From Pristiophorus japonicus (lineage: Eukaryota), in contig NC_091978.1 in the NCBI RefSeq assembly GCF_044704955.1, positions 316,076,001 through 316,140,000 of the forward strand: a DNA stretch of 64,000 nt, in the 5' to 3' direction. Numbering within the stretch: the first letter of the stretch is position 1; each line of letters begins with the position of its first letter. Both the position numbers and the translations under genes were made by a program. Under the pieces are notes generated by a model. That model was given only the letters and a program-made list of their open reading frames with translations, ran no database searches and was not told the DNA's origin. Positions 22,779 to 62,383 of this stretch are shown here, in pieces.

Positions 22779-25700
22779 TGTCATGATTGTAACCTTCACG
22801 AAACTGTAACCTTCATGTAACAACACTGTACACTGTATACACCTAAGAAATGCACACCTTGACCACAGGGGGTGAACTTGTGGGAGACACTCATCACCTG
22901 ATCATCCAGGTATATAAAGGGAGGTCCCACACAGGGTCATCACTTCTTGGTCCTGTGAATAAAGGTACAGGTGACAGAGTGACCTTGTCTCCAGTGTGTG
23001 CCTCGTGTTGATTTGCTCTAGTGTGTAAGGACACAACATTTGGCGACGAGAAATGGGAATCAACGACTCACAAGAATGGCCACCGGTAGCACGGAGGCAC
23101 AGTACTGTGTAGGTGAAGACTGGGATGATTTCATTGAGATGCTCCAGCAGAGCTTTGTCACGAAGGACTGGCTGGGAGTGGCAGCGGCTCACAAGCGAAG
23201 GGCGCATCTGCTGACCAGCTGTGGACCTAAGACGTATGCGCCGATGAAAGACCTGCTCGCACCCGAGAAGCCCGCGGACAAGACCTTCGAGGAGCTCAGC
23301 AAACTGATCGGTAGGCACCTCAAACCGGCAAGTAAGTATACACATGGCCCGACACCAATTCTATACGCACCGACGTCGGGAAGGGCAGAGCATACCAGAC
23401 TTTGTTGCGGACCTTTGGCACTTGGCCAGCCTCTGTAAGTTCACAGATGACTGCAGGGGGGAGATGTTACGGGATTTCTTCATTGAAGGCATTAGTCATG
23501 CCGGGATTTTTAGGAAGTTAATTGAGACCAAGAACTTGACCTTGGAAGCAGCGGCGTTGATGGCTCAAACCTTCATGGCAGGGGAAGAGGAAACCAAGAT
23601 CATAAACACGCGCAACCCTGCTCCCAACGTGGCAATGGAGCAGGGAGTTAACATGGTAAACGCAACTCAGAACCCTGCAGGCAGGCAAGGGCAATTCGAC
23701 ACCAACCAGGCAGTAACAGACACTAGGGTGGGTCCTCAACAGAGACAATGGCAGGTTGAATGGACATTTACACCATCACTGTGGACAATACGTCCCGGGA
23801 TGGGACCATTGGCACCCACTAACAGAGTGCTCAAGAGTAATCAAAGAGACAATCAGAGAGGAATGCCTGGTAACAGTTCTTTTGTTCACAACAATCTCAG
23901 CTCATGCTGGAGGTGCGGGAGCAGACATGCTGCGAAGACCTGCAGGTTTCAACGATTTATCTGCAGAAATTGTAACTTAAGTGGACATTTAGCCAGAATG
24001 TGCAGGAAGCCCGCAGCGAGGCTGGTTTACAAAGCGGATGAACCACAAGAGGGGTCTGCAAGGCAGGGTTATGCTTGGGACACAGCAATGGACGCTGAAG
24101 TTCAGCGGGTTCAGGTGGCAACCATCCACAGCTGATACACAAAAACGCCACCTATGATGATGAGAGTCCTGCTAAACGGCATCCCGGTACGCATGGAGCT
24201 GGGCACTGGAATCAGCCAGTCACTTATGAGTGTCCAACAATTCGAGAAACTGTGGCCACTCAGAGCTAGCAGACCCAAGTTAGCACGCATTGACACGCAA
24301 TTACGGACGTACACCAAAGAGATCATCCCAGTGCTAGGCAGTGCAATGTTGGTGGTCACACATAATGGATCAGAGAACTGGCTGCCACTCTGGATTGTCC
24401 CAGGAAATGGTCCCGCGCTTTTGCGGAGGAGCTGGCTAGCCAAGATGAACTGGAAATGGGAGGATGTAAACGCCATTTCATCTGTGGAGCGAAGTTCATG
24501 CTCACAGGTCCTACAAAAGTTCGAGTCATTATTTCAACCTGGTGTCGGGACTTTCAAAGGCACCAAAGTAAGGATACGCATCACCCCAGTCGCCACACCA
24601 GTGCACCACAAAGCCAGAGCTGTGCCATATGTGATACGGGAGAAAATTGAGAGTGAGTTGGACAGGTTGCTAAGAGAAGGCATAATTTCGCCCGTTGAAT
24701 TCAGCGACTGGGCAAGCCCCATCGTCCCTGTTCTAAAAACAGATGGCTTGGTCAGGATCTGTGGCGACTACAAGGCCACCATCAACCGATTGTCACTTCA
24801 GGACCAATACCCTTTTCCGAGAGCGGAGGATCTTTTTGCCACGCTGGGAGGCAGCAAGCTGTTCACCAAGTTGGACCTCACTTCAGCCTACATGACCCAG
24901 GCACTGGCCGAAGAATCCAAGCTACTGACCACCATCACCACGCACAAGGGGCTGTTTGTTTACAACAGGTGTCCGTTTGGCATTCATTCAGCAGCCGCTA
25001 TCTTTCAAAAGAACATGGAAAGCCTGCTCAAATCCATCCCCGGAACAATTGTATTTCAGGACGACATCCTTATCACGGGTCGAGACATCGAGGAACACCT
25101 CCACAACCTGGAGGAGGTGCTACGCCGACTGGACCGGGTAGGCCTGCGACTAAAGAAGTCCAAGTGTGTGTTTTTGGCCTGAGAGGTCGAGTTTTTGGGC
25201 AGAATGGTTGCCGCAGACGGGATCCGGCCCACCGAATCCAAAATGGAGGCGATCCGTCGCGCGCCCAGGCCTGGCAACACATCGGAGTTGCGGTCATTTC
25301 GGGAACTTTCTGCCGAACTTCAGCACATTGTTGGAGCCGCTGCATGTGCTCCTGCGTAAGGGTTGCGATTAGTTTTGGGGGGACTGTCAGGAACGGGCTT
25401 TCAATCGGGTGCGGAATCTGCTTTGTTCTAATAAGCTGTTGACCCTGTACAACCCCTGTAAGAAATTGGTTTTGAGATGTGATGCATCATCCTATGGGGT
25501 TGGGTGCGTGTTGCAGCAGAGTAATGATGAGGGCCAACTCCAACCTGTGGCTTATGCTTCCAGGTTGCTCTCCCAAACAGAAAGGGGATATGGGATGGTT
25601 GAAAAGGAAGCACTCGCATGTGTCTACGGGGTGAAAAAGATGCACCAGTACCTTTTTGCAGAAGGTTCGAGTTAGAAACGGACCACAAGCTGTTAACATC

Positions 25701-27500: not shown

Positions 27501-30500
27501 GTGCAGGAGCAGACCATTCGGCCTTTCGAGTCTGCACCATCATTCAATAAGATCATGGCTGATCATTCACCTCAGTACCCCTTTCTTGCTTTCTTTCCAT
27601 ACCCCTTGATCCCTTTAGCCATCAGGACCATATCTAACTCCCTCTTGAATATATCTAACGAACTGGCATCAACAACTCTCTGCAGTAGAGAATTCCACAG
27701 GTTAACAACTCTGAGTGAAGGAGTTTCTCCTCATCTCAGTTCTAAATGGCTTACCCCTTATCCTTAGCCTGTGACCCTGGTTCTGGACTTCCCCAACATT
27801 GGGAACATTCTTCCTGCATCTAACCTGTCCAGTCCCGTCAGAATTTTATATGTTTCTATGAGATCCCCTTTCATTCTTCTCAACTCCAGTAAATACAGGC
27901 CCAGTCGATCCAGTCTCTCCTCATATGTCAGTCCTGCCATCCTGGGAATCAGTCTGGTGAACCTTCGCTGTATTCCCTCAATAGCAAGAACGTCCTTCCT
28001 CAGATTAGGAGATCAAAACTGAACACAATATTCCAGGTGAGGCCTCACTAAGGCCTTGTACAACGGCATTAAGACCTCCCTGCTCCTATACTCAAATCCC
28101 CTAGCTATGAAGGCCAACATACCATTTGCCTTCTTCACCGCCTGCTGTACCTGCATGCCAACTTTCAATGACTGATGTACCATGACACCCAGGTCTTGTT
28201 GCACCTCATCTTTTCCTAATCTGCCGCCATTCAGATAATATTCTGCCTTCATGTTTTTGCCACCAAAGTGTATAACCTCACATTTATCCACAAATTTACA
28301 GCATCTGCCATGCATTTGCCCACTCACCTAAACTGTCCAAGTCACCCTGCAGCCTCTTAGCATCCTCCTCACAGCTCACACCGCCATCCAGTTTAGTGTC
28401 ATCTGCAAACTTGGAGATATTACACTCAATTCCTTCATTTAAATCATTGATGTATATTGTAAATAGCTGGGGTCCCAGCACTGAGCCCTGCGGCACTCCA
28501 CTAGTCACTGCCTGCCATTCTGAGAAGGACCCGTTTATCCCAACTCTCTGCTTCCTGTCTGCCAACCAATTCTCTATCCACATCAATACATTACCCCCAA
28601 TAACATGTGCTTTAATTTTGCACACCAAACGCTTGTGCGGGACCTTGTCAAAAGCCTTTTGAAAGACCAAATACACCACATCCACTAGTTCTCCCTTGTC
28701 CACTCTACTAGTTACATCCTCAAAAAATTCTGGAAGATTTGTCAAGCATGATTTCCCTTTCATAAATCCATGCTGACTTGTACTGATCCTGTCATTGCTT
28801 TCCAAATGCGCTGCTATTTCATCTTTAATAATTGACTCCAACGTTTTCCCCACTACTGATGACAGGCTAACCAATCTATAATTCTACGTTTTCTCTCTCC
28901 CTCCTTTTTAAAAAGTGGGGTTACATTAGCTACCCTCCAGTCCATAAGAACTGATCCAGGGTCGATAGAATGTTGGAAAATGATCACCAATGCAACCACT
29001 ATTTCTAGGGCCAGTTCCTTAAGCACTCTGGGATGCAGACTATCAGGCCCTGGGGATTTATCGGCCTTCAATCCCATCAATTTCCCTAACACAATTTCCT
29101 GACTAATAAGGATTTCCTTCAGTTCCTCCTTCTCGCTAGACTCTCGGTCCCCTAGTATTTCCGGAACGTTATTTGTGCCTTCCTTCGTGAAGACAGAACC
29201 AAAGTATTTGTTCAATTGGTCTGCCATTTCTTTGTTCCCCATCATAAATTCACCTGATTCTGATTGCAAAGGACCTATGTTTGGCTTCACTAATCTTTTT
29301 CTCTTCACATATCTATAAAAGCTTTTGCAGTCAGTTTTTATGTTCCCAGCAAGATTCCTCTCATACTCTATTTTCCCCCTCCTAATTAAACCCTTTGTCC
29401 TCCTCTGTTGAATTCTAATTTTCTCCCAGTCCTCAGGGTTTGCAGCTTTTTCTGGCCAATTTATATGCCTCTTCCTTGGATTTAACACTACCCCTAATTT
29501 TCCTTATTAGCCACGGTTGAGCCACCTTCCCTGTTTTATTTTTACTCCAGACAGGGATGAACAATTGTTGAAGTTCATCCATGTGATCTTTAAATGTTTG
29601 CCATTGCCTATCCACCGTCAACCCTTTAAGTATCATTCGCCAGTCTATTCTAGCCAATTCACGTCTCATACCATCGAAGTTATTGTTATGTCTGTAAGCT
29701 TGTAATGCTTGTAGCTCCACACTGTGGGTGTGGACGTATTGTGTACTGCAGCTGCATAGTTAATCATTAAACAACAGGCAGCTTTCCGGAGAGTTCCGAG
29801 AGACCAGCCTGCCATGTTAGGAAGCTGTGTGTGCTGTGCTCTGTGAAGATATCACAATTGGTGGCGTGATGTGATATTTTTCGAATGTTTAAAGCTTAAA
29901 TTTTGTTGGTGAAGGATTCAGCCAGCCGACGGAAGACTTTGAAAGTTTTTGTCTTTGAAAAAAAACCTGCAAAATCCGAAGTAAAAAACAGCACATGGCG
30001 TGAACAGCTGGAGATTAAAAATGGCAGGTGTAATCGGATATTTGGGTGAATATAGACATGAGCGGGAACATTTTAAAGCATATGTGGATTGGCTAGAAAT
30101 GTATTTCACTGCAAATAACATAATCGAAGTTCCAGACAATGCAGTCCAGAACCAGGCTGTGTTGGAACGTAAGAAAGCGATTTTCTTATCAGTGGCAGGT
30201 CCGGCATTATACGAAACCCTTGTAAATTTGCTTGTGCCTGACGAGCCATAGGACACAATGCTTAAAGAGATTTTAATGAAGCTGGAGCAGCACTATAACC
30301 CCAAACCGTTAGAAATTGCTGAAAGCTATCGTTTCGGGATTCGGAATCAAAAGTCTGATGAAAGTATCGCTGATTACATCACAGCATTAAAAAAGCTATC
30401 GATGCATTGTAATTTTGAAAACTTTCAAAACCGAGCATTACGGGTTCGTTTTGTTTGTGGGGTGAAAAATGATGCGATCAGAAGGAAGTTATTGACGACA

Positions 30501-31677
30501 GATGACTAAACTTTTGAGATTGCTTGTCAGACAACGAGGTCAATGAGCATGGCTGAATAATATTCCCGAGAATTAAATAATGATTACGGTCATCAGTCAA
30601 CCGAGGTAAATCACCTGCAGGTTCAAAGTAAAAGACGGGCATGGCCGAAAGTCTCAGAAACTGGAAATTCTACCAGAGTGTCGAAGTCATGCTATAGGTG
30701 CCTGGGACAACACATTGCTAAAAGTTGTTCATACGTGAAGACAGAGTGTTTCTTCTGCAGAAAGACTGGGCATCTTGCGAAGGCATGCCGACTGAAGGGT
30801 AAACCAGTTTTTAAAGCTATGAGTCCAGGTTTCAAAACTATGAGTCGAAATCCAAACAGACTACATAGCACGGAAGAACAACAACAGGACGAGGAGATGT
30901 TAGAGTTACACGTCATCAGGAGCACGAGGTTAACGGACAGCGATTCGGGAAGCATCAAAATCCACATAGATGTTGCGGGATTCAAGATACCAATGGAAAT
31001 TGACACAGGTGCCTCCGTGAGTGTAATACCAGAGTCACTGTACCGCGACAAATTGCGTGATTTCCAACTGGAGAAATCCCAGATAGAGCTGCGAGGCTAC
31101 TCGGGAGGGAAAATTCCTGTAGTAGGTCATATCACCGTACCGGTGAAATATAAAGATCAATTTCAGAACTTACCTCCAATAGTAATGAAAGGAGACAAGA
31201 CTGCCTTACTAGGAAGAAATTGGTTGAGCTCACTGAAGCTGGATTGGAGTAAGGTTTTCTGTGTGGAAGCGAGATTTTCATCAATGAAAGAGGTTATCAA
31301 GCAGTATCCGAAGGTGTTCTGCGAAACAGGCAGTCCGATCCAAGGCTTCAAGGCGAGTGTCAGGGTACAGAAGGACGCTAGTACCATATGCACTCAAGGA
31401 GAAAGTAGAGCAAGAACTCAAAAGGCTAGAGACTGAGAACATTATTTGTAAGATAGATCGATGTAATTGGGCTACACCCATTGTTGTTGTACCTAAGTCT
31501 GATGGTAAAGTAAGATTGTGTGGTGATTATAAGGTAACCGTAAACCAGGTTCTAGAGGGTCAAGTCCCCAATACATTGCCGAATATAGAAGATTTGTTCA
31601 CAACACTGACAGATGGTCAGATCTTCTCAAAACTGGATCTTACGAATGCCTACTTACAGCTTGAACTAGATGAGGAA

Positions 31678-32339
31678 TGTTAGCGCGAATGTTTTCCTGG
31701 AAGAAGCACTCGACACTCTGGGTCGGTTCCAACGGCAAAACGGCCTTTATTACTCCGGCAGGGAGAGAGCCTCTGGTCCAACTCCAGGCACTCCACTCCA
31801 CCGAACAAAGAAATTCATCGATATTTATATGTTTTACAATAGTTCATTACAATTACTCAGCCCATGTCGGCTGGACATAATCCAATCATAATGATTACAA
31901 ATCGATTCCACTGGGCCAATGGAATTGGCCCCCACGCACCAGGGGACTGCGTGATCATCTCATGTTTTACCTGGGGCTTATTCATGGCCTCGTGATATTC
32001 TCCAGACCCCCTTATCTTTACTGTCCTTGGGTTCTGCTTGCGCCTAACCTCCTTATCCTTACACAGGAATTTCTTTGTTCAGTATTCTGCTGGGATATCT
32101 TGGCTGTGGTTTGTTGATTAAGGACGTTCTGCTGAGCTCGCCCTTTCCAGTGTTCCTGTACACGGAACTGCAGTGTCATCAGCTACTCAAAAATGTAGTC
32201 AAGCTAACTGTTAGCTGAATTCCCCTAGTGCTTTGCGGAATCCCTGGCAGCCATTTTATATCTGGCTACCATTTTACACATGCATACATGCATACATATA
32301 TTCAGCAAGTGCCTTTGCCTTTGAAAGTGCCCTACAACA
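31678..32339 (-). repeat. 3' LTR of the provirus (662 bp)
   Basis: Direct repeat of 37440-38086; TATA (catataaatat) at ~31821-31831 and AATAAA at 31746-31751 on the minus strand. Confidence 0.97.
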
Positions 32340-32350
32340 ATCCCCTCTTT
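32340..32350 (-). promoter_or_regulatory. Polypurine tract
   Basis: AAAGAGGGGAT immediately before the TGTTGTAGG start of the 3' LTR. Confidence 0.85.
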
Positions 32351-32544
32351 CGGTAAGGGACAAATCCTAGTCCACTTTAACCGACAACATAATTGTTACT
32401 CTATTTATATTCTTATGTACCACTCGGTACTTCCTGCCTCAACGTGCTGGCCAGTCACGTGATTTCAGAAGTCCCGGTTGCTTAGATCAAATTGATATAG
32501 TTCAGATTCCCCTGTCCCTCTGCTGGACAAGTCTCTTTATTTAC

Positions 32545-34627
32545 TCAATCCCTTGTTCTGATACTCCTTTGTCGCGCATAATGCCTGTAGGAGCGACATG
32601 CCATGACGCCCCATGTTAGTGCTAAGACCAGCTGTATCCCTACCAGTATGTGTGATATTATTCAAATCCAGGGGTGGATGTTTACGTTCATCCCCCAGTC
32701 CCAGACCCTCCTCCACCAACTCTGGTTTTGTAACTCTTGGTCAGTATCCTTCTCCAGTATTTCAATCTTTGTCTGTAGTTGGTGGTAGAGTCTGACAGAC
32801 TGGCCTACTCTGAGTCTTAGTTCCCTTAATACTTCAACTAAATGTGGGATAGGGGCCTGCTCTGGCTCGTCATAACCCTGCAGGTGATCGTGGAGCTGAT
32901 CGATGGCGTTAATGATTTTGGGCCTCGGCGTCTAACCTGGATAATGCGGGCTTGTCCTATTGTAACCGATCGTAGGGCTGTGAAGCAAAAGTTTGGTTGC
33001 GAGATCTGGCATTGTAAGCATTGTACCGATATGAATGTGCCGTGGTAAAGACACAGTATTTCCCTTTGCCCCCGTAACCTGCTCTGGCAAAATGTGTGGG
33101 GGCAGGTACTATTTCCAATACACATCCATCGGTTGGATTAAATCCACATCTGTCTAGTTCTCCCTGTCCCACCGGGTGAGGGCACACCGTAATGTCACCC
33201 GTCTGCTTGCATCCCGTCAGGGAGATCCCATAGAGTGTGTTGTCTCTGCGGATAGCAGAGGCTGCAGTCAGATAGTAATGGAGGGAGGTGTTTTCCCGTA
33301 TGATCCTGATATTCTCCAGTTGATAAAGGGGAAACGGTCCTGAGTCTTGTGTGACTATAGGTATCATCAGGGCTATTCCCACTCCGGCAGCTTTGCCCAT
33401 TAGGCAGTTTGGGATCACTGGGTATACTCTGGTTAGTCCCTTCAGAGTGCAGTTATCCAGTGTCCCCTTCAGTTTGGCCAACTGAGCCAGATGTGGGCTG
33501 TCTATCCAGTCTGGCAACTCCCCCCTTTGGATCTGATCGAGGTTGTGCCGTATCTGTCCCACCATCCATAAGCCATAAGCGTGACAGAATTGCTCCTGTC
33601 TAAGTTTTCCAGTATCTTCTCTCTCTCTCTCTCGATAAGGTGATTGATTGTTTTTGCGTGAGCTTCCAGGACCGAGATGCCATCCAATTGGATTTCGGCA
33701 CCCTCTCTTCCTAGTTCGGCTTGATCTTCCTGATTCCGCCCTGCCCATTCTAATAATCCCTTCATCACCCCTTTAAGCTGCTCCACCCTTTCATTTAGCC
33801 CTTGTATGTCCAGTGAGTTTACTATGGAGGTTCCGGCATTAAAACCGGTAGCAACATCATTAACTATTTCCCTCTGAGTCCTATGAACTGGCTCCTGTCC
33901 TCGGAATCTACTGGCACCCATGGCATCGGCAGCCTGCTGCATTATAACTTTACTTAATACATTATACATTTTTCTTGCCTGCTCTCTACAATATTCCGGC
34001 ATCTGTATACCTGAGATATTGATCAGGACAGGCACAATTTCATGCTTAACATTATCATACAATAGTTCACCCTCGTTGGACAGCCCGATCCCATTTTCCG
34101 GTCCCCTTGTAATTGTTGGACATGGCAATTCCATGGGCAGTGTGGTGGTTCTTATGGGGCGCAGTGTCGGAGGGGGTGAGAAGCATACATACAACAATAT
34201 TGCGGCAGCCTCTACCTCCTCATAGTATCCACACAGCCCCATCCCCTTTTTGTGGGTGACTAACGATTGTGGCTGGGCAGGAGGCGCGCAAATTATTCCA
34301 AAGGTACATTCATCGGGCCCCCCCGGCCTCCCTTCGTCTAATGCAACTGCTCCTTGTACCCGTGGAGCATTGCACACATACTCTATTCTTATCCGGATTC
34401 ACTTGCAGCCACGCGTTAAAATAAGTTCTGTCCTTGCTCCAGTCCTTGGCTGTCGGAATGCCTATTCAGTCAGTCAAAGTAAACAAAACCCCATAGTTCA
34501 TGTAATTTTGTCTTTCCTGCGTATGCTGTATCTCTCGTCGTCCGTCTGTATTATCCAGTGCTTGCGTGGGCCTTAAGGTTCCCAGTATCATGAGTCCCCA
34601 GAGTCGAAGTCGCCACTGCGGTCCCAC
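32545..34627 (-). pseudogene. env: Envelope / class I fusion glycoprotein (F-type), disrupted by 2 in-frame stops and ~5 frameshifts
   Basis: Signal-like N-terminus; RTQR cleavage site at 33871-33882; fusion-peptide-like EIVNDVATGFNAGTSIVNS; heptad repeat; Cys-rich domain; second heptad; Trp-rich segment; TM IISHILVGIQLVLALTWGVMAC; basic tail. Confidence 0.85.
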
Positions 34628-34754
34628 CTCGGTGAGTGTTTTATCTGCAAATTTTAAACAGATAGCCTGGTCGTCACCAGGTGTTAGGTTCTGGTCTACT
34701 TGTGTCGCGGTCACTCTGTGGAATCGGAGGCAAGGGTTAGGTTATCCATATACT

Positions 34755-34907
34755 TTATAGTCGTACCATCTCAATCACTTCATGTCCCTGTCTGGGCTGC
34801 CGTCGATTTTGCATTTGAGCTTGCTGTGCTCGAGCCTGCACGATGACCCATCTAAATATTATCCAAACTGCAATCAACACCAATGCCACCACTATTCCTC
34901 CAAACAT
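34755..34907 (-). CDS. 50-aa single-pass membrane protein, candidate accessory gene (below the ORF-track length cut-off)
   Basis: Manual translation: MFGGIVVALVLIAVWIIFRWVIVQARAQQAQMQNRRQPRQGHEVIEMVRL*. Confidence 0.5.
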   Translation of the reverse strand: MFGGIVVALVLIAVWIIFRWVIVQARAQQAQMQNRRQPRQGHEVIEMVRL

Positions 34908-36626
34908 CGCAGTCTGCTTTACTGTTAGGTTGGGTTTGTGGACTACACCTACTCACCGTGGGGTACATTGGCTCTATTGCCATAGGTGATGGTGCTATGA
35001 CTGCGCACTGCACTATTCGTCTGGTCCCATTTTTAAAAATCTCTTCCAGCCTATTTATCTTAGCTTTTAACTCTTGACCAGCTAGTTTGTTTTATTTTTA
35101 TTCTGACTACCCCACCATTTCCTCTGTCTGTCAGGTGAGTCTTCTTTATTTTATTAAGAAATTCAAATTAGTAAGGTCCAGTATAAAACAGCTGTCAATG
35201 GAAAGAGTTAACTCCTTTACAGGTTTGTAAGAAGGCCTGATGTCATTACATGACTTCGCGTAATCATCCAAATCTTTGTGCCTTCAAAACTTGCTTAGAA
35301 ATTAGGAATCCATTAAAACACCAGAAATCATTAGTAAAGTGGTCATAATAAAACTCTTCTCATCGCGAAAGACAGCATTTTAGATTAAACTCCAATTTTT
35401 TCCTTAACTTCTAATGCAAGTACTTGCCAAAGATTTATTTTTGATTTAAAACGAGACCACACATTTTTAATAGCTATTTTGTTCACTGAAATCCAATTTT
35501 CACACAAGCTGTACACATGCCAACATTTCAGGGGTTTTTTACGGTCCCGTTCATTGGGCAAATCTTGTGTTTTATTTCTCTCTCGGCACAAAATCTAAAC
35601 TTCCGTGCCAGTTCCATTTTCTATAAGAATTTTAAAATTCAGTAAGATTTTCTAATTCCCAGTTTTTTCTTTCTGTGCTGAGTTCGCATAGCTTAGATCT
35701 TTTCTCCTCGTTATTTTCAAAATGCTCCTGCTTGTTTAGACTGTGCGGGACTTTTCTTGATAAACAACGTCCATTTTGGAAATCTTTTCAAACTGCAGTG
35801 AAACTTTCTCGTAATTTAAAATCATTATCAATGTCGAGTGTCTTTTACCTCCTCCAATTTTTTTTTCCAATTAAACCAATATCTTTTTCACAGCCAATAT
35901 CAACTAGTATTTAGTAAGTTATGTCTTTTTCGATCACAAACACCTTTTTTTTAAAGAGATCAGATTTAACTTTTTGTTTTAAATGTATCGCATTTTGTTT
36001 TGCCTTTTCTTAACCAGTGGTACTTGAAACCTTCACAACAAAATTAATTCTTCACTGTTCCCATCCTAATTTCTGCTCCCCTTTTGTAGAATTTGTATTT
36101 ATTGTTGGATTACAAAATGTCAAATATGGTAATACTGTTTTTTTTAGCCAAACTTCTGTTTTAGAAGCTGATCAAAAACTCTAATCTTTTGCTCTGTAAC
36201 TTCAATTTTGTGGTACTATATCTCATAAATTACATCTTTTTTAAGCTTCAGCTTCTGACACAGTATGTGTACTTTTATTAAAAAGGCTTCCAAATCCAAG
36301 ATTTTCCAATACAACCAAAATGTTTATCAATGAGAATCACCTGAAATATCTCAAAATCCCAATTCAAATATTGTACTGCCAATCTGTTATTTAAAAATCT
36401 CTTTACTGAGCTAGAAGCTTTCGTGTCAAGGTTTTACACAAAGGAAAAATGGGAACGTACTTCTCCAGCTTGCAGCCTCGAGATACCCACACAGGCTTCT
36501 TTTTTTAAAAGGCATTACAGCTTCCCTTCTCCATTCTTTATCTCATTCCTAGACAGACATTCACAAAAGTCTCCTTTCATTCAACAAAGTTTATTGTTTA
36601 GCTGGCTCTATTCTTGGATCCATACT

Positions 36627-36902
36627 TCACTTAAGATAATCACTATTAGGTTTTTTCTCATTTCTTACATATTGATTAACTTCCTCTGTTAATTTTATGT
36701 GGGCTCGAAGAATCAAGACCACGGCTTTCTCATCTTTATCTTTCTTTTCCTTCTCCCACCGTTCCCGCTGATTTGCTGACGGGTCCTGGGGGTCCCATCC
36801 TGACTTAATCATCTTCTCAATTAGTTTCTTTTGTTTTTCTGCCAGGTGGCAGATAAGGGACCCTTCCGGTCCCCACTCGAGGTTATTTGCTTTATTGGCC
36901 AT
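36627..36902 (-). CDS. 91-aa ORF in the Gag position, probably a truncated Gag N-terminus
   Basis: First substantial ATG ORF after the PBS leader, good Kozak context (ggaATGG), charged helical sequence; no capsid or zinc-knuckle motif. Confidence 0.55.
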   Translation of the reverse strand: MANKANNLEWGPEGSLICHLAEKQKKLIEKMIKSGWDPQDPSANQRERWEKEKKDKDEKAVVLILRAHIKLTEEVNQYVRNEKKPNSDYLK

Positions 36903-37378
36903 TCCTGGATAGGACTAGAACCGTTAGGAATCTACTCACAGAGGTCCGCTTTCCACCGAGCGTAACTTGTAGTAGACCGCCTCCTGGCCTGTCAGGTCAC
37001 ATGTTCTGCTATTACACAAACTTATACAATTCTTAAAATGCGTTTAAGCAATTCCCTACGCCTCCTTAATGACTACCTACCACCGTTTTGTCTGTCGGTC
37101 CGACCCTGTTCACAGGTTTGGTTTCCGTTGGTCGCTGTGCACCGCCTGGTCTCCGGGGTATATTTTCAAATCACACTACTGGGTCTGGGAAGTGTCGCTC
37201 GGTATCACGATCCCACAGTCTAAGTGTGTTCCCTACACCTACTTAGTTCCTGGCCATCACGTGGGACAAAAGTCCTCTTAATACAGGCTCAGGCTAGGTG
37301 TTTAAGATATTAGACCGTCTCCTCGTGTCGATCAACCGGCTTCCACCTTCCACACCCTTTATAATTAAATTTTTTTAT

Positions 37379-37384
37379 ACTCAC
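37379..37384 (-). promoter_or_regulatory. Candidate major splice donor
   Basis: CGG|GTGAGT about 35 nt downstream of the PBS. Confidence 0.55.
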
Positions 37385-37419
37385 CCGGGTTTTTCCAAGG
37401 GCGTCCAGCGACTCCGGGA

Positions 37420-37438
37420 AATCCTGCCGACTATGCCA
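37420..37438 (-). promoter_or_regulatory. Primer-binding site, tRNA-Ser (AGA/TGA-type)
   Basis: TGGCATAGTCGGCAGGATT matches TGGCGTAGTCGGCAGGATT (complement of the vertebrate tRNA-Ser 3' end) at 18/19; 1 nt from the LTR. Confidence 0.9.
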
Positions 37439-37439
37439 C

Positions 37440-38086
37440 TGTTAGCGCGAATGTTTTCCTGGAAGCAGCACTCGACACTCTGGGTCGGTTCCAACGCCAA
37501 AACGGCCTTTATTACACCGGCGGGGAGAGAGCCTCTGGTCCAACTCCAGGCACTCCACTCCACCGAACAAAGAAATTCATCGATATTTATATGTTTTACA
37601 ATAGTTCATTACAATTACTCAGCTCATGTCGGCTGGACACAATCCAATCATAACGATTACAAATCGATTCCACTGGGCCAATGGAATTGGCCCCCAGGCA
37701 GCAGGGGACTGCGTGATCATCTCATGTTTTAGCTGGGGCTTATTCATGGCCTCGTGATATTCTCCAGACCCCCTTATCTTTACTGTCCTTGGGTTCTGCT
37801 TGCGCCTAACCTCCTTATCCTTACACAGTCACAGGAATTTCTTTGTTCAGTATTCTGCCAGGATATCTTGTCTGTGGTTTGTTGATTAAGGATGTTCTGC
37901 TGAGCTCGCCCTTTCCAGTGTTCCTGTACACGGAACTGCAGTGTCATCAGTTACCCTAAAATGTAGTCAAGCTAACTGTTAGCTGAATTCCTGGCAGCCA
38001 TTTTATATCTGGCTACCATTTTACACATGCATATATGCATACATATATTCAGCAGGTGCCTTTGCCTTTGAAAGTGCCCTACAACA
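37440..38086 (-). repeat. 5' LTR of the provirus (647 bp)
   Basis: ~19 substitutions plus 6-bp and 21-bp indels relative to the 3' LTR (counted by eye). Confidence 0.97.
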
Positions 38087-41000
38087 AGGAGTCCAAGTCA
38101 TGTTTGACTATAAATACTCATCTAGGCCTATATCAGTTTAAAAGGCTACCGTTTGGAGTGTCATCCGCCCCTGCCATATTCCAAGGGGTGATGAACCAGA
38201 TTTTGCAAGGTATTGAAGGGGTAGTATGTTATTTGGATGACATACTAATTTCAGGACCAAATAGGCAAATTCATAATAACATATTGAATGAAGTCCTCAA
38301 ACAGCTAGAGAAACACAGAGTACGAGTGTCTGCTCGTAAGTGTGAGTTATTTAAAAACTTAGTGGAGTACTTAGGGTACAGTGTAGACAAAGATGGTTTA
38401 CTTCCAACCATGGAAAAATTGGATGTAATTAGAAATGCAACCACTCCCAGGAATGTCACTGAACTTCGTTCATTCTTGGATCTTTTGAACTATTATGGGA
38501 AGTTCCTACCACTATTGGCTACAGTATTACATCCATTGAATGAACTTTTGAAAAAACAGGTCCAGTGGAAGTGGTCAAAAGAATGCGATACAGCATTAAG
38601 GAGTGTAAAAGCAAATTGGTAGAGAGCACCATGTTAGTTCACTACGACATATCTAAGGAGATTAAACTAGCATGTGATGCCTCTCCGTATGGAGTTGGGG
38701 CAGTAATCTCTCATGTATTAAGTAGTGGGGAGGAGAGACCAATTGCTTTTGCTTCACGCACTCTCAGTGCCAGTGAGAGAAATTATGCTCAAATTGAAAG
38801 GGAAGCTTTGGCATTAATTTTTGGGGTCAAGAAGTTTCACAAATACTTGTATGGTCGTAAATTTACCATCGTTACGGACCATAAGCCTCTAACAGCAATC
38901 CTCCATCCAAAGTCCCCAGTTCCAACATTAGCTGCAGCCCGAATGCAGAGATGGGCTTTGATTTTGTCAGCATATACATATGATATTGAATACAGACGAT
39001 CAGCTTATCACAGTAATGCTGATGCAATGTCTAGATTGCCTTCCCCATCACAAGTTACACCCGATAGGGAAGAAGTGTTTTATTTTTCATACATTGATGA
39101 ACTGCCAGTCACAGCTGAAGAGATTGGTAGAGCAACCAAACGTGACCCAGTGATGTCAAAGGTGTATGAGTATATTGCAAATGGATGGCCAAACCAGGTA
39201 ACAGACAACGATACACAACCATTCTTCATTCGTAGGAATGAATGATCAGTCGATAAAGATTGTATCATGTGGGGTGCAAGAGTGGTTATACCAAATAAAT
39301 TCAGGTCCAAATTATTCGGAGACCTCCATGACCAGCACCTGGGAATGTGCTTGACCAAGAGTTTTGCACGCAGTTATTTATGGTGGCCAGGTCTTGATAA
39401 AAATATAGAGTACATCGTGAGTCAGTGTACGACATGTCAATCGGTAAACAAGCAACCACCACCAGTACCATTACAGCCATGGAAATGGCCTCCCAGGGTG
39501 TGGCAAAGGCTACATATTGATTTTGCTGAGTTAGATGGACAACAATTGTTCATTGTAATTGATAGCCATTCAAAGTGGGTTGAGGGTTTCCAATGTGGAA
39601 AATAGCAAGTAAAACATTGGACATTTTACGAAAATAATTTTCTGCATTTGGCCTCCTTGAAGAAAATGTTTTGGATAATGGACCATAATTTCGTTCAGAA
39701 GAATTTGCACAATTCACGAGCAAAAATGGTGTGAAACATACCAAGGTTCCATCATACCACCCTGCTTCGAATGGTGCAGCAGAGCGCACTGTACAAATTG
39801 TAAAACGTGCCCTCATAAAACAAATGTTAGATCCAAATCCAAGAAAACGACAGTTGTCATTGGATCACAAATTGGCTAATTTTTTGATTACATATCGTAA
39901 TACTCCTCATACAACTACTGGTAGAACACCAGCAGAGTTGTTTCTCAAATGACAGCCACAAACCAGATTCTCGTTGTTGAAGCCAAATTTGGCACAGTCT
40001 GTAGAAGAGACACAATTAAGACAAAAAGAGAATCTTGATAAAGGGAGAGTAAAAGAGAGAAGTGTGAAATTAAACCAGAAGGTGAGAGTGAGGAACTATC
40101 ACCATAAATGGTTAAAGTGATTACCCGGAAGAGTGGTAAAGATATGTGGTCCTCGCACATATTTGGTCAAGATGTTTGATAATGAACAGGTGAGGTTTGT
40201 CCATATTGATCATATTTTACCTACAGACATGGAAGGAGTTGAAGGTGGGAATGATTCAATTATTTCTGACTTTTCAGATAGTTTTGATATACCAGTAGCA
40301 AATCCTAAATCCAATGTACTGGAAACAAATCCAGGAGAGAATCAGAATGAAAGTCTGAGTCCGAGTCAGGAAAACAAAGAGCCTGAAGTTAGAGGGAGTG
40401 CAAATGAAAATCAAGGAAATTCCATGGAGGAAAATGTTCCTCAGGATGAGCCTCAAATGAGTGTGAAATCAACACCATGTTTGGAAGGTTCTATTCGAGA
40501 GCGAAGGTGTCCTCTTCAAAACAGAAAACAAGTGGTAAAGTTAAATTTGTAAATATGTATAAAAATGAAAGTTATTTATGATGTTTGTTATGATGGATTT
40601 TTCATTAAGGAGGGAGAAGTGTAATGTCTGTAAGCTTGTAATGTTTGTAGCTCCACACTGTGGATGTGGACGTATTGTGTACTGCAGCTGCATAGTTAAT
40701 CATGAAACAACAGGCAGCTTTCCGGAGAGTTCCGAGAGACCAGCCTGCCATGTTAGGAAGCTGTGTGTGCTGTGCTCTATGAAGATATCACAGTTATCTT
40801 TCCTTAAGTTCAAGTAACCCTAGTCTCTGAATTAACACTGTCACTCTCCATCTTAATAAAGAATTCTACCATATTATGGTCACTCTTCCCCAAGGGGCCT
40901 TGCACAACGAGATTGCTAATTAGTCCTTTCTCATTACACATCACCCAGTCTCGGATGGCCAGCCCTCTAGTTGGTTCCTCGACATATTGGTCTAGAAAAC

Positions 41001-48362: not shown

Positions 48363-48904
48363 TGTTTGAGGGAGATAATTGAAAAGCAGAGAAGTTATAT
48401 TAAGCTAGTATAGAACCTTGGTTAGACCACACTTAGAATAATGTGTACAGTTCTGGTCTCGATAGTATAAAACGTGTATAGAGGTTAAAGGTGCAAAATA
48501 GATTTACAAGGATGATATCAGAACTGAGATGTAATACTTACCATGAAGCATTGAATAGGATGTGGCTTCTTTCTTTAGAACTGATAGAGGTATTTAAGAT
48601 TATGAAAGGGTTTGATAGGGTAGACGTAGAGAAAATGGCCAGAATTTTACCGGTGCCGAGTGTGCGCGTTTGGGGATGGGTCAGAAGTTAAATTCACGGA
48701 AATTGACAGCACATCACCATATGAGTGACTGTTGTATGCCATGTGGCAGTGTGAGATTTAATTCTGTCACCAGGTTGCTGGAAGGTCCCCCCCCCCCCCC
48801 CGCCTCTCCATCTCCCACCGCCAGCACTCTGCAACTCCAGAGATCTCTAGGGCCTCCTCCTCTGCTGCAGTCAATTGAGTGAATATTGGAGGGCCACCTC
48901 CGGT

Positions 48905-50105
48905 TTTAGATTTTCAAAAGGCATTCGATAAGGTGCCACACAAAAGGTTACTGCAGAAGATAAGGGTACGCGGAATCAGAGGAAATGTATTAGCATGGAT
49001 AGAGAATTGGCTGATGAACAGAAAGCAGAGAGTCGGGATAAATGGGTCCTTTTCGGGTTGAAAATCGGTGGTTAGTGGTGTGCCACAGGGCTCGGTGCTG
49101 GGACCACAACTGTTTACAATATACATAGATGAACTGGAAGAGGGGACAGAGTGTAGTGTAACAAAATTTGCAGATGACACAAAGATTATTGGGAAAGCGG
49201 GTTGTGTAGAGGACACAGAAAGGCTGCAAAGAGATTTAGATAGGTTAAGCGAATGGGCTAAGGTTTGGCAGATGGAATACAATGTCGGAAAGTGTGAGGT
49301 CATCCACCTTGGGGGAAAAAAACAGTAAAAGGGAATATTATTTGAATGGGGAGAAATTACAACATGCTGTGGTGCAGAGGGACCTGGGGGTCCTTGTGCA
49401 TGAATCCCAAAAAGTTAGTTTGCAGGTGCAGCAGGTAATCAGGAAGGTGAATGGAATGTTGGCCTTCATTGCGAGAGGGATGGAGTACAAAAGCAGGGAG
49501 GTCCTTCTGCAACTGTATAGGGTATTGTTGAGGCCGCACCTAAAGTACTGCATGCAGTTTTGGTCACCTTACTTAAGGAAGGATATACTAGCTTTGGAGG
49601 GGGTACAGAGACAATTTACGAGGCTGATTCCGGAGATGAGGGGGTTACCTTATGATGATAGATTGAGTAGACTGGGTCTTTACTCGTTGGAGTTCAGAAG
49701 GATATGGGGTGATCTTATAGAAACATTTAAAATAATGAAAGGGATAGACAAGATAGAGGCAGAGAGGTTGTTTCCGCTGATCGGGGAGACTAGAACTAGG
49801 GGGCACAACCTCAAAATACGGGGGAGCCAATTTAAAACCGATTGAGAAGGAATTTCTTCTCCCAGAGGATTGTGAATCTATGAAATTCTCTGCCCAAGGA
49901 AGCAGTTGAGGCTAGCTCATTGAATGTATTCAAGTCACAGATAGAGAGATTTTTAACCAATAAGGGAATTAAGGGTTACGGGGAGCGGGCGGGTAAGTGG
50001 AGCTGAGTCCACGGCCAGATCAGCCATGATCTTGTTGAATGGCGGAGCAGGCTCGAGGGGCTAGATGGCCTACTCCTGTTCCTAATTCTTATGTTCTTAT
50101 GTTCT
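48905..50105 (+). mobile_element. CR1 3' fragment (copy 2 at ~55809-57010)
   Basis: [25 protein letters not shown]; (ttcttatg)n tail. Confidence 0.93.
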
Positions 50106-50467
50106 CTGCCTTTCCCTGTTGTTGTGGCAAGGAGGGAAAGAAGAGAACGTTGAGTGAGAGTGATGAAATGAGTGTAAGGAATGGATGAGGTACATCTGTA
50201 GAGGGTGACCATGAGGGATTGGCATGAATTGCCAAATGGCCTCGTTCTGTGGTGTTATTTGCTATGATTGCATTAGGATGAGGGTGAGTGTCAGGTGTGG
50301 TTAATCAGATGGGAATTTGTGTAGATGCAAAGAGAGTGAGGGATGGGTGGACCTGCAAGATAGGTTGGTGTGAGGAATGGTGTGCATGAGTAGACTTGGT
50401 AAGGCAGAGTGATGGAGTTGGGGTGACAGGCACATCAGGATGTAGGTGAGTATGGCATTGCACTCAC

Positions 50468-50705
50468 CTTGCCTGACCTTATGAGATCATTGAATCTCTT
50501 GCGGCACCGGATCTACGTCCTCCTCACCACAACCCTGCTGTGCTCTGTGCTGTCCAGCCATGCCCTCTTAGTGTCTCTTATGCTGGTCTTTTTCTGGATT
50601 CTGCAGGGAAGAGGAACTCCTAGCATGCTCTTACTCCCTAGACCAGCACTTCCAGGAAGGCATCTAGAAATCATAGGGCTGCCCTCTGCCTTTGTATCTC
50701 CATGA
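50468..50705 (-). pseudogene. Myb/SANT-like exon 1 remnant (copy 2 at ~57373-57610)
   Basis: KRAW...SRVVVRRT*IRCRKRFNDLIRSGK|gtgagt. Confidence 0.7.
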
Positions 50706-50717
50706 CCCACAGAATAA

Positions 50718-53700
50718 CATAAAAGGGAATCCAAAAGTCTTCTATAGCCATATAAATAGTTAACGGGTAGTAAGAGGAGGGGTGGGGCCGATTAGGGACC
50801 AAAATGAAAACTTGCGCATGGAGGCAGAGGGCATGGCTGAGGTAATAAATGAGCACTTTGCATCTGTCTTTACCAAGGAAGAGGATGCTACCAAAGTCAC
50901 AGTGAATGAGGAGGTAGTTGAGATTCTGGATGGAATAAAAATTGATAAGGAGTAGTTACTAGAAAGGCCGTCTGTACGTAAAGTAGATAAGTCACCAGGA
51001 CCAGATGGGATGCATCCTAGAATGCTGAGGAAAGTAAACGTGGAAATTGCGGAGGTACTGGCCAAAATCTTCCAAATCCTCCTTCGATATGGGGCTGGTA
51101 CACCGCTGTTCAAAAAAGGGTGTAAGGATGAACCCAGCAACTACAGGCCGGTCAGTTTAACCTCAGTCGTGGGTAAGCTGTTAGAAACGATAATCTCGGA
51201 CAAAATTAACAGTCACTTGGACAAGTATGGGTTAATTAAGGAAAGCCAGCATGGTTTTGTTAAAGGCAAATCGTGTTTACCTAACTTGATCGGGTTTTTT
51301 GATAAGGTAACAGAGAGGGTTGATGAGGGCAATGCGGCTGATGTGGTGTACATGGACATAAAAGGCGATCGATAAAGTGCCACATAATAGGCTTGCCAGC
51401 AAAGTTGAAGCCCATGAAATAAAAGGGACAGTGACAACATAGAGACAAAATTGGCTAAGAAACAGGAAACAGAGAGAAGTGATGAATGGTTGTTTTTCGG
51501 ACAGCAAGAACGTATACAGTGGTGTTCCCAGGGGTTGGTACTAGGATGATGATGATGATGATGACTAGGACCACTGCTTTGCTTGTGGGAAACTGTTCAA
51601 CCTTCGTTGATTCCAGGCCAGGTCCAAGACCACCCCAACGTCTGTTGGCAAGCTACAGTACGCGGACAACGCCTGCATCTGCGCATATACAGAGGCTGAA
51701 CTCCATGTCATAGTCAACATATTTCATCATTATCATCATCATAGGCAGTCCCTCGGAATCGAGGAAGATTTGCTTCCACTTAAAATGAGTCCTTAGGTGG
51801 CTGAACAGTCCAATATGAGAACCACAGTCCCTGTCACAGGTGGGACAGATAGTCATTGAGGGAAAGGGAGGGTGGGATTGGTTTGCCGCACACTCTTTCC
51901 GCTGCCTGCGCTTGATTTCTGTATGCTCTCGGCGACGAGACTCGAGATGCTCAGCGCCCTCCCGGATGCACTTCCTCCACTTAGGGCAGTTTTTGGCCAG
52001 GGACTCCCAGGTGTCAGTGGGGATGTTGCACTTTATCAGGGAGGCTTTGAGGGTGTCTCAACGTATTTACTGAGGCATACGAAAGCTTGGGCCTTACGCT
52101 AAACATCCGTAAGACAAAGGTCCTCCACCAGCCTGTCTTCGCCGCACAGCACTGCCCCCCAGTCATCAAGATCCACGGCCCGGCCGAGGACAACATGAAC
52201 CATTTCCCATACCTCGGGAGCCTCTTATCAACAAGAGCAGACATTGACGACGAGATTCAACACCGCCTCCAGTGTGCCAGCGCAGTTTTCAGCCGCCTGA
52301 GGAAAAGAGTGTTCAAAGACCAGGCCCCCAAATCCACCGCCAAACTCATGGTCTACAGGGCTGAAGTAATACTCGCCCTCCTGTATGGCTCAGAGACATG
52401 GACCATGTACAGTAGACACCTCAAGCCACTGGCGAAATACCACCAACGATGTCTCCGCAAGATCCTACAAAGCCCTTGGGAGGACAGACGCACCAACATT
52501 CAGGCCAACATCCCCAGCATCGAAGCACTGACCACACTTGACCAGCTCCACTGGGCAGGCCACATTGTTCTCATGCCAGACATGAGACTCCCAAAGCAAG
52601 TGGTCCACTCGGAACTCCTTCACGGCAAATGAGCCAAAGGTGGGCAGAGAAAACGTTACAGGGACATCCTCAAAGCCTCCCTGATAAAGTGCAACATTGC
52701 CACTGACACCTGGGAGTCCCTAGCCAAAGACCACCCTAAGTGGAGGAATTGCATCCCGGAAGGCACTGAGCATCTCGAGTCTCATCGCCGAGAGCATGCA
52801 GAAATCAAGCGCAGGCAACGGAAAGAGCATGTGGCAAACCAGTCCCACCCACCCTTTCCCTCAACGGCTATCTGCCCCACCTGTGACAGGGATTGTGGTT
52901 TTCGTATTGGACTGTTCAGCCACCTAATGATTCATTTTTAGAGTGGAAGCAAGTCTTCCTCAATTCTGAGGGTCTGCCTATGATGATGATGATGATGATG
53001 ACTAGGACCACTGCATTGCTTGATAAATATTAATGTTTTACACTTGGGCGTACAGGACACAATTTCAAAATTTGCAGATGACACTAAACTTGAAAAAAAA
53101 GGAGAATAGTGAAAGACTTCAAGAAGACATAGACAGGCTGGTGGAATGGGTGGATATCTGGCAGGTGACATTTAATGCAAAAGTGAAAAGTAATACATTT
53201 AGGTAAGAAGAATGAGGAGAGGCAATATAAACTAAAGGCTACAATTCTAAAGTGGGTGCATGAACAGAGAAACCTGGGGGTATATGTGCACAAATCATTG
53301 AAGGTGGCAGGGCAGGTTGAGAAAGTGGTTAAAAAAGCAAAAAGGATCCTAGGCTTCATAAATAGAGGCATAGAGTGCAAAAGCAAGGAAGTTATCATGA
53401 ACCTGTATAAAACACTGCTTCGGCCTCAACTGGACTATTGTGTCCAATTCTGGGCACTGCACTTTAGGAAGAATGTGAAGGCCTGAGAGAGGGTGCAGAA
53501 AAGTTTACAAGAATGGTTCCAGGGATGAGGGACTTCAGTTACGTAGATAGACTGGAGAAGCTGGGGTTGTTCTCCTTAGAGCAGAGAAGGTTGAGAGGAG
53601 ATTTGATAGATGTGTTCAAAATCATGAGGGGTCTAAAAAGTGTAAATATAGAGAAACTGTTCCAATTGGTGGAAGGGTCGAGAACCAGAGGACACAGATT

Positions 53701-53972
53701 TAAGAGCCAAAGGCAGAAGAGCCAAAGGCGACACGGCGAAAAACTTTTTTATGCAGCGAATGGTTAAGATCTGGAATGTACTGCCTGAAAATATGGCGGA
53801 GGCAGATTCAATTGTGGCTTTCAAAAGCGAATTAGATATGTACCTGAAGGAAGAAAATTTGCAGGGCTCTGGGGAAAAGGCGGGGGAGTGGGATTAGCTG
53901 AAGTGCTCTTGCAGAGAGCCGGCATGAGCCCAATGGGCCAAATGGCCTCCTTCTGTGCTGTAACCATTCTAT
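50718..53972 (+). mobile_element. Decayed CR1, interrupted by RTE insertions (copy 2 at ~57623-60860)
   Basis: KSPGPDGMHPR, NYRPVSLTS, QHGF, FADD, YCVQFW; CR1 3' UTR. Confidence 0.88.
51586..53000 (+). mobile_element. 5'-truncated RTE LINE containing an inverted RTE 3' fragment (51725-52057); copy 2 at 58484-59888
   Basis: LQYADN, GLTLNIRKTK, LLYGSETW, WAGH; (atg)n tail; 22-bp TSD at 51564-51585 / 53001-53022; inner 11-bp TSD tcaac(a/g)tattt. Confidence 0.9.
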
Positions 53973-54832
53973 GGACTCAATTTTCCCCAAAGCTGTTTTT
54001 TGGCGCACTTAAAGAGTTACGTCCATTTTTTGGGGGTCCCAAGTACGGCAAAAAAAATCATCCAAGTTTCCCCTTTTGAATTCTTCATTTTGGCGCCACC
54101 TAACCTGTTGTGGGGCTGGAGCCCAAGATCTGCACCAAAAAGATCGGGTTGCCACGGTAACCAGGGACACAATGCAGGTTGAGTCTGGAAAGTGTAACAT
54201 ACAGCCAGCTCACAGCAATCTGCACAAGCGTTTTACAGCAACTTACCAAGCACGTTAAACATTGCAGCAACTTACCTCCATTAAATTATTAAAGTGTAAT
54301 GATAAAAGTCTATCTCCCTCCCACCCCCTCCCCACCCACCGATGCCGATCCCAGCCCATGGACCTATCCCTGGCCGAATGGCCTCCCGGTTCCGGTCATC
54401 ACACCTATCCGAGGCCGAATGGCCTCCTTCCTCCCGATCCCCGCACCTAACTATGCCTGAAAAGCTTCCCCCCCCTCTCTCCCACTCTCTCTCACCTCTC
54501 TACTGCTGCTGTCCGGGCATCTGCTGTGCTGATTTACTTACCTGCGGCTATTTTCTTAACTCACCTGAAGGTTTTTCCACAGAGGCCATATACGCCATCC
54601 TAAAAAGAATTGGAGTAAAGCGGAGCTGGCCAAACTTGCTTAACTGGCTAGAATTGGCGCGGGTGGCAAGTTACACCACCTATGACAGGAAAAAAAACTA
54701 ACCTAAAAATATTGTAACTAACTGAGTTACGCCAGCACACATTGATTGGGGAAACTTGTATTTTTTAACTTAGGCCAAAAAAAGCGGCGCGTGCCAAAAA
54801 AACGGCGCGAATCACTGGGGAAAATTGAGCCT
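53973..54832. mobile_element. MITE inserted in the CR1 tail (copy 2 at 60861-61697)
   Basis: TIRs GGACTCAATTTTCCCC / GGGGAAAATTGAGCCT; flanks tat/tag. Confidence 0.8.
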
Positions 54833-55516
54833 TAGGTTTCTATGACTCTAATTGTCAATATTATTCAGCAATTTAGAGATCTGGAAATTACCTTCAACAC
54901 TCCAACAGCAATCTTCAAATGAAATGTGTACAAGGCTGCTTTAAATATTCGCACAGAGCTGCTCCGTTTAATTGGGCCAGGAAACGCATGACTCTTTTAA
55001 TTGGAGCCATTGAGTTAAACACGCAGTGCAGAACGCACTGTTCAAATCTTCGGGATGCCGACCCGCTACGCAGCCTGCGCGCAGCCGACCTGACTCCTGG
55101 TTAAAGATTCCAGCCGATGTTTCCGCATGTGGAGGAGACCAATACTCGGCGACATAACTACAAGATCACCACTAATAAATCCAATAGGGAATTTGAGTAA
55201 TACTTCTTTACCAGAAAGTGGTTAGAATGTGGAACTCGCTGCCACAAGGAGTAGTTGAGGTGAATTGCATTGATGCGTTTAAGGGGAAAATGGATAAACA
55301 CACGAGGGAGAAATTAATAGAAGGTTATGCTGATAGGGTGAGAGGAAGAGGGGTATGAGGAGGCACGTGTGGAGCATAAACTCCGGTATGGACCAGTTGA
55401 GCCGAATGGCCTGTTTCTGTGCTGTACATTCTATGTAATATTTATCCAAATGCTTAGTCACTCCACCTCTAATAACAGATTCAAGTAACATCCCCAACTC
55501 AGATGTTAGATGAATA

Positions 55517-61500: not shown

Positions 61501-62383
61501 AAAGCGGAGCTGGGCAAACTTGCTTAACTGGCTAGAATTGGCACGGGTGGTAAGTTACACCACCTATGACAGAAAATAAAATAACCTAAAAATATTGTAA
61601 CTAACTGAGTTACGCCGGCACACATTGATTGGGGAAACTTGTATTTTTTAACTTAGGCCAAAAAAAGCGGCGCGAATCACTGGGGAAAATTGAGCCTTCG
61701 GTTTCTATGACTCTAATTGTCAATATTATTCAGCAATTTAGAGATCTGGAAATTACCTTCAACACTCCTACAGCAATCTTCAAATGAAATGTGTACAAGG
61801 CTGCTTTAAATATTCGCACAGAGCTGCTCCGTTTAATTGGGCCAGGAAACGCATGACTCTTTTAATTGGAGCCATTGAGTTAAACACGCAGTGCAGAACG
61901 CACTGTTCAAATCTTCGGGATGCCGACCTGCTACGCAGCCTGCGCGCAGCCGACCTGACTCCTGGTTAAAGATTCCAGCCGATGTTTCCGCATGTGGAGG
62001 AGACCAATACTCGGGGACATAACTACAAGATCACCACTAATAAATCCAATAGGGAATTTGAGTAATACTTCTTTACCAGAAAGTGGTTAGAATGTGGAAC
62101 TCGCTGCCACAAGGAGTAGTTGAGGTGAATTGCATTGATGCATTTAAGGGGAAAATGGATAAACACACGAGGGAGAAATTAATAGAAGGTTATGCTGATA
62201 GGGTGAGAGGAAGAGGGGTATGAGGAGGCACGTGTGGAGCATAAACTCCGGTATGGACCAGTTGAGCCGAATGGCCTGTTTCTGTGCTGTACATTCTATG
62301 TAATATTTATCCAAATGCTTAGTCTCTCCACCTCTAATAACAGATTCAAGTAACATCCCCAACTCAGATGTTAGATGAATAGG
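55517..62383 (+). repeat. Tandem duplication, copy 2
   Basis: Differs from copy 1 by scattered SNPs and small indels (e.g. 7 bp near 50762, 12 bp near 52246). Confidence 0.97.

Follow-up and report, generated by a model that had tools for sequence, protein, structure and literature searches.

Pol-less, env-carrying endogenous retroviruses form a high-copy family in the shark Pristiophorus japonicus and probably depend on a complete relative with a predicted F-type envelope

With reference to the literature, the closest counterparts of the element described here are defective endogenous retroviruses (ERVs) that spread with the help of a complete relative. The D-type of cattle ERVK[2-1-LTR], as described in PMC10924933, carries a foreign central segment between retained gag and env flanks, is mobilised in trans by a C-type helper, recombines with that competent form and outnumbers it. 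Similarly, the pairs of recombinant koala retrovirus and koala retrovirus (recKoRV/KoRV; PMC6112702) and ETn/MusD (named in PMC10924933) combine the long terminal repeat (LTR) and gag leader of the helper, a foreign middle and the helper's 3' end, with target duplications at new sites. In this study, we investigated a window of 64,000 nucleotides of the Pristiophorus japonicus genome (GCF_044704955.1, contig NC_091978.1, positions 316,076,001 to 316,140,000 of the forward strand), in which the minus strand carries, at 31678-38086 of the window, a provirus with two LTRs and env but without pol. We consider it probable, at about 0.78, that this provirus belongs to a non-autonomous ERV family in which most of gag and all of pol have been replaced by an A-rich spacer, and whose members likely rely on the proteins of a complete relative for packaging, reverse transcription and integration. 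By analogy, the best reading is that of a trans-complemented parasite like the cattle D-type ERVK or recKoRV, unusual in its full-length env.

The shark family differs from these systems in several respects. The cattle D-type retains parts of env without an intact open reading frame (ORF) and is betaretroviral, not of a fish lineage (PMC10924933), whereas the shark family keeps the whole env region, which is open in some copies. In recKoRV1, as PMC6112702 describes it, only the end of env is kept and the middle is a known retroelement, while the shark spacer matches no source. No description of this family was found in the literature, with repeat databases lying outside the comparison.

The pol-less layout is a trait of the family and not of the window copy. 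First-look searches returned 2,766 candidates with the LTR, 6,605 with the Gag stub and 4,415 with a 213-base piece of the spacer, totals that are not copy numbers. Spacer sequence was present in 57 of 57 look-alike loci and pol in 0 of 57; these loci were chosen through LTR, spacer or Gag-stub matches, and the sample tilts towards pol-less copies because the stub query carries a spacer-derived tail. All six LTR pairs of the first search were pol-less and collinear with the window copy. A layout unique to this provirus, with pol in every other copy, had been the obvious objection, and it did not materialise; deletion after insertion as the origin of the layout was ruled out by the absence of pol from these 57 loci and by the common junctions and spacer. 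A 10.4-kb LTR pair on contig C5, considered as a full-length helper, proved to be a pol-less copy with other repeats inserted. Among 23 scored loci, 13 show perfect target duplications of 5 bp and 5 show duplications of 4 bp, lengths that the pol-less and pol-bearing classes have in common; the chromosomal copies, with their own target duplications, paired LTRs and differing flanks, occupy independent integration sites. Two types of primer site were noticed, each in both pol-less and pol-bearing classes; the first corresponds to tRNA-Ser(AGA), and the second we take to be that of tRNA-Ser(CGA). A tRNA-Ser-like end also lies in a large tandem array on contig C23 (about 11.7-20.5 Mb, period near 1.95 kb), with 1022 exact matches genome-wide.

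The absence of pol, asserted by the first-pass annotation, was borne out. With the RT (reverse transcriptase) and RNase H-integrase pieces of the partner described below, tblastn over the internal region of the window copy gave a best E value of 0.13, and a pol profile built from 13 natural open pieces gave at best 2.8 on five spacers; the same profile recovered a distant Gypsy RT nearby at E 0.002. None of four methods (blastn, tblastx, tblastn and profile) disclosed degenerate pol in the spacer. The A-rich spacer itself (34910-36666, minus strand; 38% A) spans about 1.75 kb between its two junctions, contains no long ORF, a result that extends to the best 150 scored matches, and showed no protein relative, no Rfam family and no match to the proteins collected in this study. 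Near 35140-35090 it bears a faint resemblance (E 0.004-0.02) to the gag start in a more distant partner lineage, which hints at a backbone perhaps assembled in two steps.

A contemporaneous autonomous relative that shares LTR ends, primer site and leader exists in the same genome. It was reached through a 408-codon frame in one of the best 150 scored Gag matches, and the provirus there encodes Gag with a CCHC zinc knuckle, protease, RT (YVDD), RNase H, integrase, a small membrane ORF and env. Identity between this partner and the window copy amounts to 84.6% across the LTR end, the leader and the first ~79 codons of gag, and to 75% in env; the partner's RT was met at at least 83% identity in at least 150 loci. 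In L024, a broken pol-bearing copy, the LTR over its whole length is 91% identical to the window's and the primer site is the same, so that the search proposed in the first-pass annotation, for pol elements with this LTR and primer site, found its object. The LTR divergences of the two classes overlap, with medians of 3.1% (n=37) and 3.5% (n=19). Several partner copies have near-identical LTRs and unbroken pol frames of about 1,180 codons, suggesting that the partner was active recently. An ORF of 70-82 aa with a single membrane segment, between pol and env, is conserved across several partner lineages. Inspection of 37 pol-bearing loci disclosed the spacer in none and env in 36, the sole locus without env being truncated and followed by 9.9 kb that lack a 3' LTR. 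Three candidates for an env-less helper were set aside, two having env past an insertion and one being cut off, and among the pol-bearing loci examined none combined two LTRs with a lack of env. The earlier suggestion of a bipartite system is not supported: with env on 36 of 37 pol-bearing loci, the system is probably not two-part.

The window copy retains in cis what a helper would need, namely the LTRs, a primer site for tRNA-Ser, the leader together with the beginning of gag, and the purine tract. We propose that the leader with the gag start would act as a putative packaging signal used by helper Gag, helper RT would prime on tRNA-Ser, and helper integrase would insert the pol-less DNA. 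In mixed particles that contain a helper RNA alongside a pol-less RNA, template switching could swap the 3' part for helper sequence and so restore env length; env and the 3' end would be replaced repeatedly because they are homologous to the helper, while the spacer, without a helper counterpart, would not be reset and would drift in length. Env would then be a likely passenger, retained without use for its protein. Co-packaging, the role of the leader and the resetting of env by recombination are what we infer from sequence comparison.

The env region of the pol-less copies supports this account. The comparison was based on 45 pol-less rows that cover at least 85% of the reference stretch, shorter rows being dropped; 15 of these were unlike the sampled partners throughout, 14 were partner-like throughout and 16 were mosaic. 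Thirteen of the 16 mosaics change once, to partner type on the 3' side, at five positions, and none in the reverse direction, and the mosaics point to co-packaging with the partner. The ladder in the env tree, taken as gradual evolution on a pol-less backbone, was abandoned when window scans traced it largely to recombination. A net difference of only 1.4-3.7% separates the spacers and membrane ORFs of pol-less subfamilies, while their env reaches a net dS of 0.86, suggesting that env was brought onto the backbone and did not diverge there; the env types being swapped are 16-30% apart. Moreover, one env frameshift is common to 16 of the 45 rows at separate loci, a second is shared by 7 of those 16, and a deletion of 160 bp is common to two loci. 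Such shared lesions suggest that the copies likely spread without a working env. The env of the window subfamily has a dN/dS of 0.64, within the 0.55-0.81 of the non-coding spacer control. An open env stretch was observed in 4 of 45 pol-less rows and in 7 of 16 pol-bearing ones.

Several observations weigh against this account. The polarity of the mosaics is partly built in, as only pol-less copies were scored for them. Only the best 40 or 150 candidates per search were scored, so the samples are biased and small. The env length lies within 40 nt of the median in 32 of 42 copies, as compared with 2 of 40 for the spacer, and selection on Env would produce this constancy too. The six bases of the splice donor in the leader are retained (identical in 49 of the 55 pol-less copies and in 21 of the 32 pol-bearing ones). 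Finally, the stem of the window-type env, which stands at a net dS of 0.84-0.95 from partner env, shows a net dN/dS of 0.09 (bootstrap 0.07-0.11), a mark of strong purifying selection which suggests that this env evolved under selection somewhere; a donor for it was absent among the 37 pol-bearing loci, the best segments reaching 89-90%.

Retention of the splice donor, the constant env length, the low stem dN/dS without a donor and the open env stretch in two window-type rows are what would be expected if the pol-less copies, or at least the window subfamily, were satellites selected to express Env from a spliced RNA and to supply it to helper particles. This was the inference of the first-pass annotation, of which one part, a non-autonomous element with a pol-bearing partner sharing its cis signals, has been sustained, and the other, the donation of envelope, has not. 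The partners own an env in nearly all of the loci inspected, an env-less form with two LTRs was not seen among them, lesions of env are common to many loci, and env divergence far exceeds that of the backbone, so that envelope donation is unlikely. We likewise hold it to be doubtful that the window subfamily in particular lent helper particles an F-type Env variant, without match in any complete provirus and kept under purifying selection in the absence of pol. If donation were true, one retrovirus would run on two genomes with exchangeable fusogens.

Retention of env as RNA offers another explanation for its constant length in spite of a frequently broken frame: the region might serve in cis, for export, dimerisation, packaging or genome length, with neither the protein nor its repair being needed. 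In cattle, the defective forms keep gag and env flanks for which cis effects have been suggested in PMC10924933. However, env types so far apart are swapped freely in the shark family, the 160-bp deletion has been propagated, and no structured RNA family was matched in Rfam, which makes a cis role highly improbable as the reason for keeping env. Duplication or conversion at the DNA level of one deleted provirus, as the main mode of spread, is favoured by the numerous near-identical matches on unplaced contigs and by a few tandem loci; it may apply to the unplaced cluster, but the independent insertions reported above largely refute it for the chromosomal copies, leaving it hardly any likelihood overall.

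The relationship of the partner was examined by its RT, of which the best solved relatives are those of murine leukaemia virus (MLV, 126 bits), foamy virus (116) and Ty3 (75). The tree comprised 29 of 77 database matches, seven partner copies, two Loki-like metagenome RTs and two Gypsy RTs, with no foamy or ERV-L rows; the two Loki rows and snakehead retrovirus (SnRV; P0022) were assigned by eye against the supplement of PMC7947760. Partner RT clusters with other shark RTs (support 98/92) within a branch that holds SnRV and gamma/epsilon-like rows (99/98), with Loki outside, and a tree constrained to unite partner and Loki was rejected (approximately unbiased test, p 0.00086). The Loki RT motif pattern had no exact match in this genome, and in the PMC7947760 supplement, up to page 300 of 318, five cartilaginous fish genomes bear no positive mark in the Loki screen. 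Partner pol aligns as a single stretch to the connection and RNase H of MLV, so that a tether plus second RNase H is present, yet this layout is common to all retroviruses; the best Protein Data Bank (PDB) matches were foamy integrase and the RNase H of MLV/XMRV. By RT, the partner is a retrovirus outside Loki.

Lokiretroviruses, as PMC7947760 describes them, resemble the shark family in an Env related to paramyxovirus and pneumovirus F, an RXKR cleavage site and a dual RNase H; they differ in that partner RT is excluded from Loki and no smc gene was seen in the partner. That the family is a lokiretrovirus, as the first-pass annotation had proposed and as the F-type Env, the tether plus RNase H layout and the extra ORF beside env might suggest, can practically be dismissed in view of the RT tree, its constrained test and the motif search. 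SnRV and the SnRV-like ERVs, including elephant shark CmiERV lineage I (PMC4422223, PMC6001957, PMC4977317), share with the partner 46% identity over the RT core, the YVDD motif, a deep place in the retrovirus branch and fish hosts, and SnRV-like shark ERVs have already been described (PMC4422223, PMC6001957, PMC4977317, PMC12440569, PMC13709493). However, a joint clade of SnRV and partner lacks support in this tree, from which ERV-L and foamy rows are missing, and SnRV Env was not among the 48 Env-profile matches that could be named.

The Env was compared by several routes. Pfam disclosed no fusion family in it nor in 47 relatives, a single-sequence PDB search found nothing, and a first model from 12 rows was unusable (predicted local distance difference test, pLDDT, 30). 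A 47-row profile placed foamy virus Env at the top of the PDB matches (8rm1_D, E 0.0039), and the Atlas ranking was led by clusters of Baculo_F (0.96) and Fusion_gly (0.93), at a recognition score under the line of trust. A further model was made from a natural open frame of 455 aa in a sister copy; this frame shares 77% identity with a window-type Env. The model reached a mean pLDDT of 70 and a best Foldseek E of 1.9e-10 at a TM score of 0.46 and a root mean square deviation of 19, and all 44 listed Foldseek rows were pneumo- or paramyxovirus F; the modest TM score and high deviation would be compatible with a model, built as a monomer, whose shape is intermediate between the pre- and post-fusion forms. 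Env is thus predicted to be an F-type (class Ib) fusogen with the fold of paramyxo-/pneumovirus F, in agreement with the F-type assignment made at first sight. Its named close relatives are all from sharks, and wider ones, known from Env sequences alone, occur in a skate and frogs. In the distant relatives P0118, P0133, P0135 and P0138, from a shark and frogs, the N-terminal module differs and is immunoglobulin-like by a weak Pfam match in one.

An F-like class Ib fusogen in a true retrovirus is also described for foamy virus (PMC11468914), and F-like Env in errantiviruses is reported in bioRxiv 2023.10.26.564294. The partner differs from foamy virus in a Gag with a CCHC knuckle, a pro-pol that follows the gag stop, and an Env of about 700 aa whose signal peptide is short. 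In the literature compared, with most subscription journals outside its scope, we found no F-type Env for a retrovirus outside both Loki and, as judged from RT and layout, the foamy viruses.

The window copy displays the full set of cis signals that the first reading had listed. Its 5' LTR (37440-38086, 647 bp) and 3' LTR (31678-32339, 662 bp), both on the minus strand like the internal features below, have TG...CA ends; the former shows a TATA motif near 37591-37586 and AATAAA at 37513-37508. The pair differs by 19 mismatches in 641 aligned columns (3.0%; Kimura two-parameter distance 0.030), which at the shark rate assumed in PMC4422223, itself a guess there, would correspond to about 69 million years. 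The primer binding site (37420-37438) is complementary in 18 of 19 bases to the 3' end of a host tRNA-Ser(AGA) gene plus CCA, a short polypurine tract (32342-32351) precedes the 3' LTR, and target duplications of 5 bp flank the provirus on the plus strand (31673-31677 and 38087-38091; AGGAA/AGGAG, one mismatch).

The internal layout agrees with the earlier description as to the 91-aa ORF at the Gag position and the 50-aa ORF, and departs from it in a spacer of about 1.75 kb instead of 1.5 kb and in a broken env. The 91-aa Gag stub (36627-36902) consists of ~79 codons of partner gag and a short tail read from the spacer, with the junction near 36667. The 50-aa hydrophobic ORF (34755-34907) corresponds to the 3' part of the 70-82-aa membrane ORF and is nearest to its counterpart in a more distant partner lineage. 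The env (32545-34644) is predicted to encode a class I fusogen of F type that carries an RXXR cleavage site and long helices and is anchored in the membrane at its C terminus; the gene is interrupted, relative to an intact database relative, by four frame changes near 34320, 33600, 33000 and 32920; the first of these is common to four rows and lies in a base run, where slippage may recur.

The predicted splice donor of the leader lies at 37075-37080, and the putative acceptor ahead of env, at 34645-34646, is suggested by the sequence and by database gene model P0004, which splices the 16 codons that precede the donor onto env. This 16-codon frame opens with ACG in place of ATG in 44 of the 55 pol-less copies and 20 of the 32 pol-bearing ones; it could possibly encode a leader peptide with a non-AUG start. 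SnRV has a spliced leader peptide.

The provirus lies within a host Gypsy-type element (29684-40795, plus strand), which has 176-bp terminal repeats 96.6% alike and an RT frame split by the provirus, and this element is itself inside LINE-like sequence, making a nest of three levels. Elsewhere in the window, two more Gypsy-like copies in opposite orientation (335-2958 and 23040-25658) are about 71-77% alike, and a 6.9-kb repeat-rich block is duplicated in tandem at 48602-62383 with 98.2% identity. An open frame of 267 aa at 7262-8062 may represent a fragment of a Harbinger-type transposase.

Our verdict is that the pol-less family is real, of high copy number and probably helper-dependent, with an Env that is predicted to be F-type and an affinity that is not Loki. 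Proliferating ERVs as a rule shed env, and this family departs from that rule at high copy number for a reason that can be tested: recombination with the helper would reset env while the spacer decays. The complete partner, for its part, is a retrovirus outside Loki by RT with an Env of predicted F fold, whose Env relatives are found in several sharks, a skate and frogs. Together with the Env of foamy viruses and lokiretroviruses, it would favour the F-type as the ancestral retroviral envelope, the orthoretroviral type being a later replacement.

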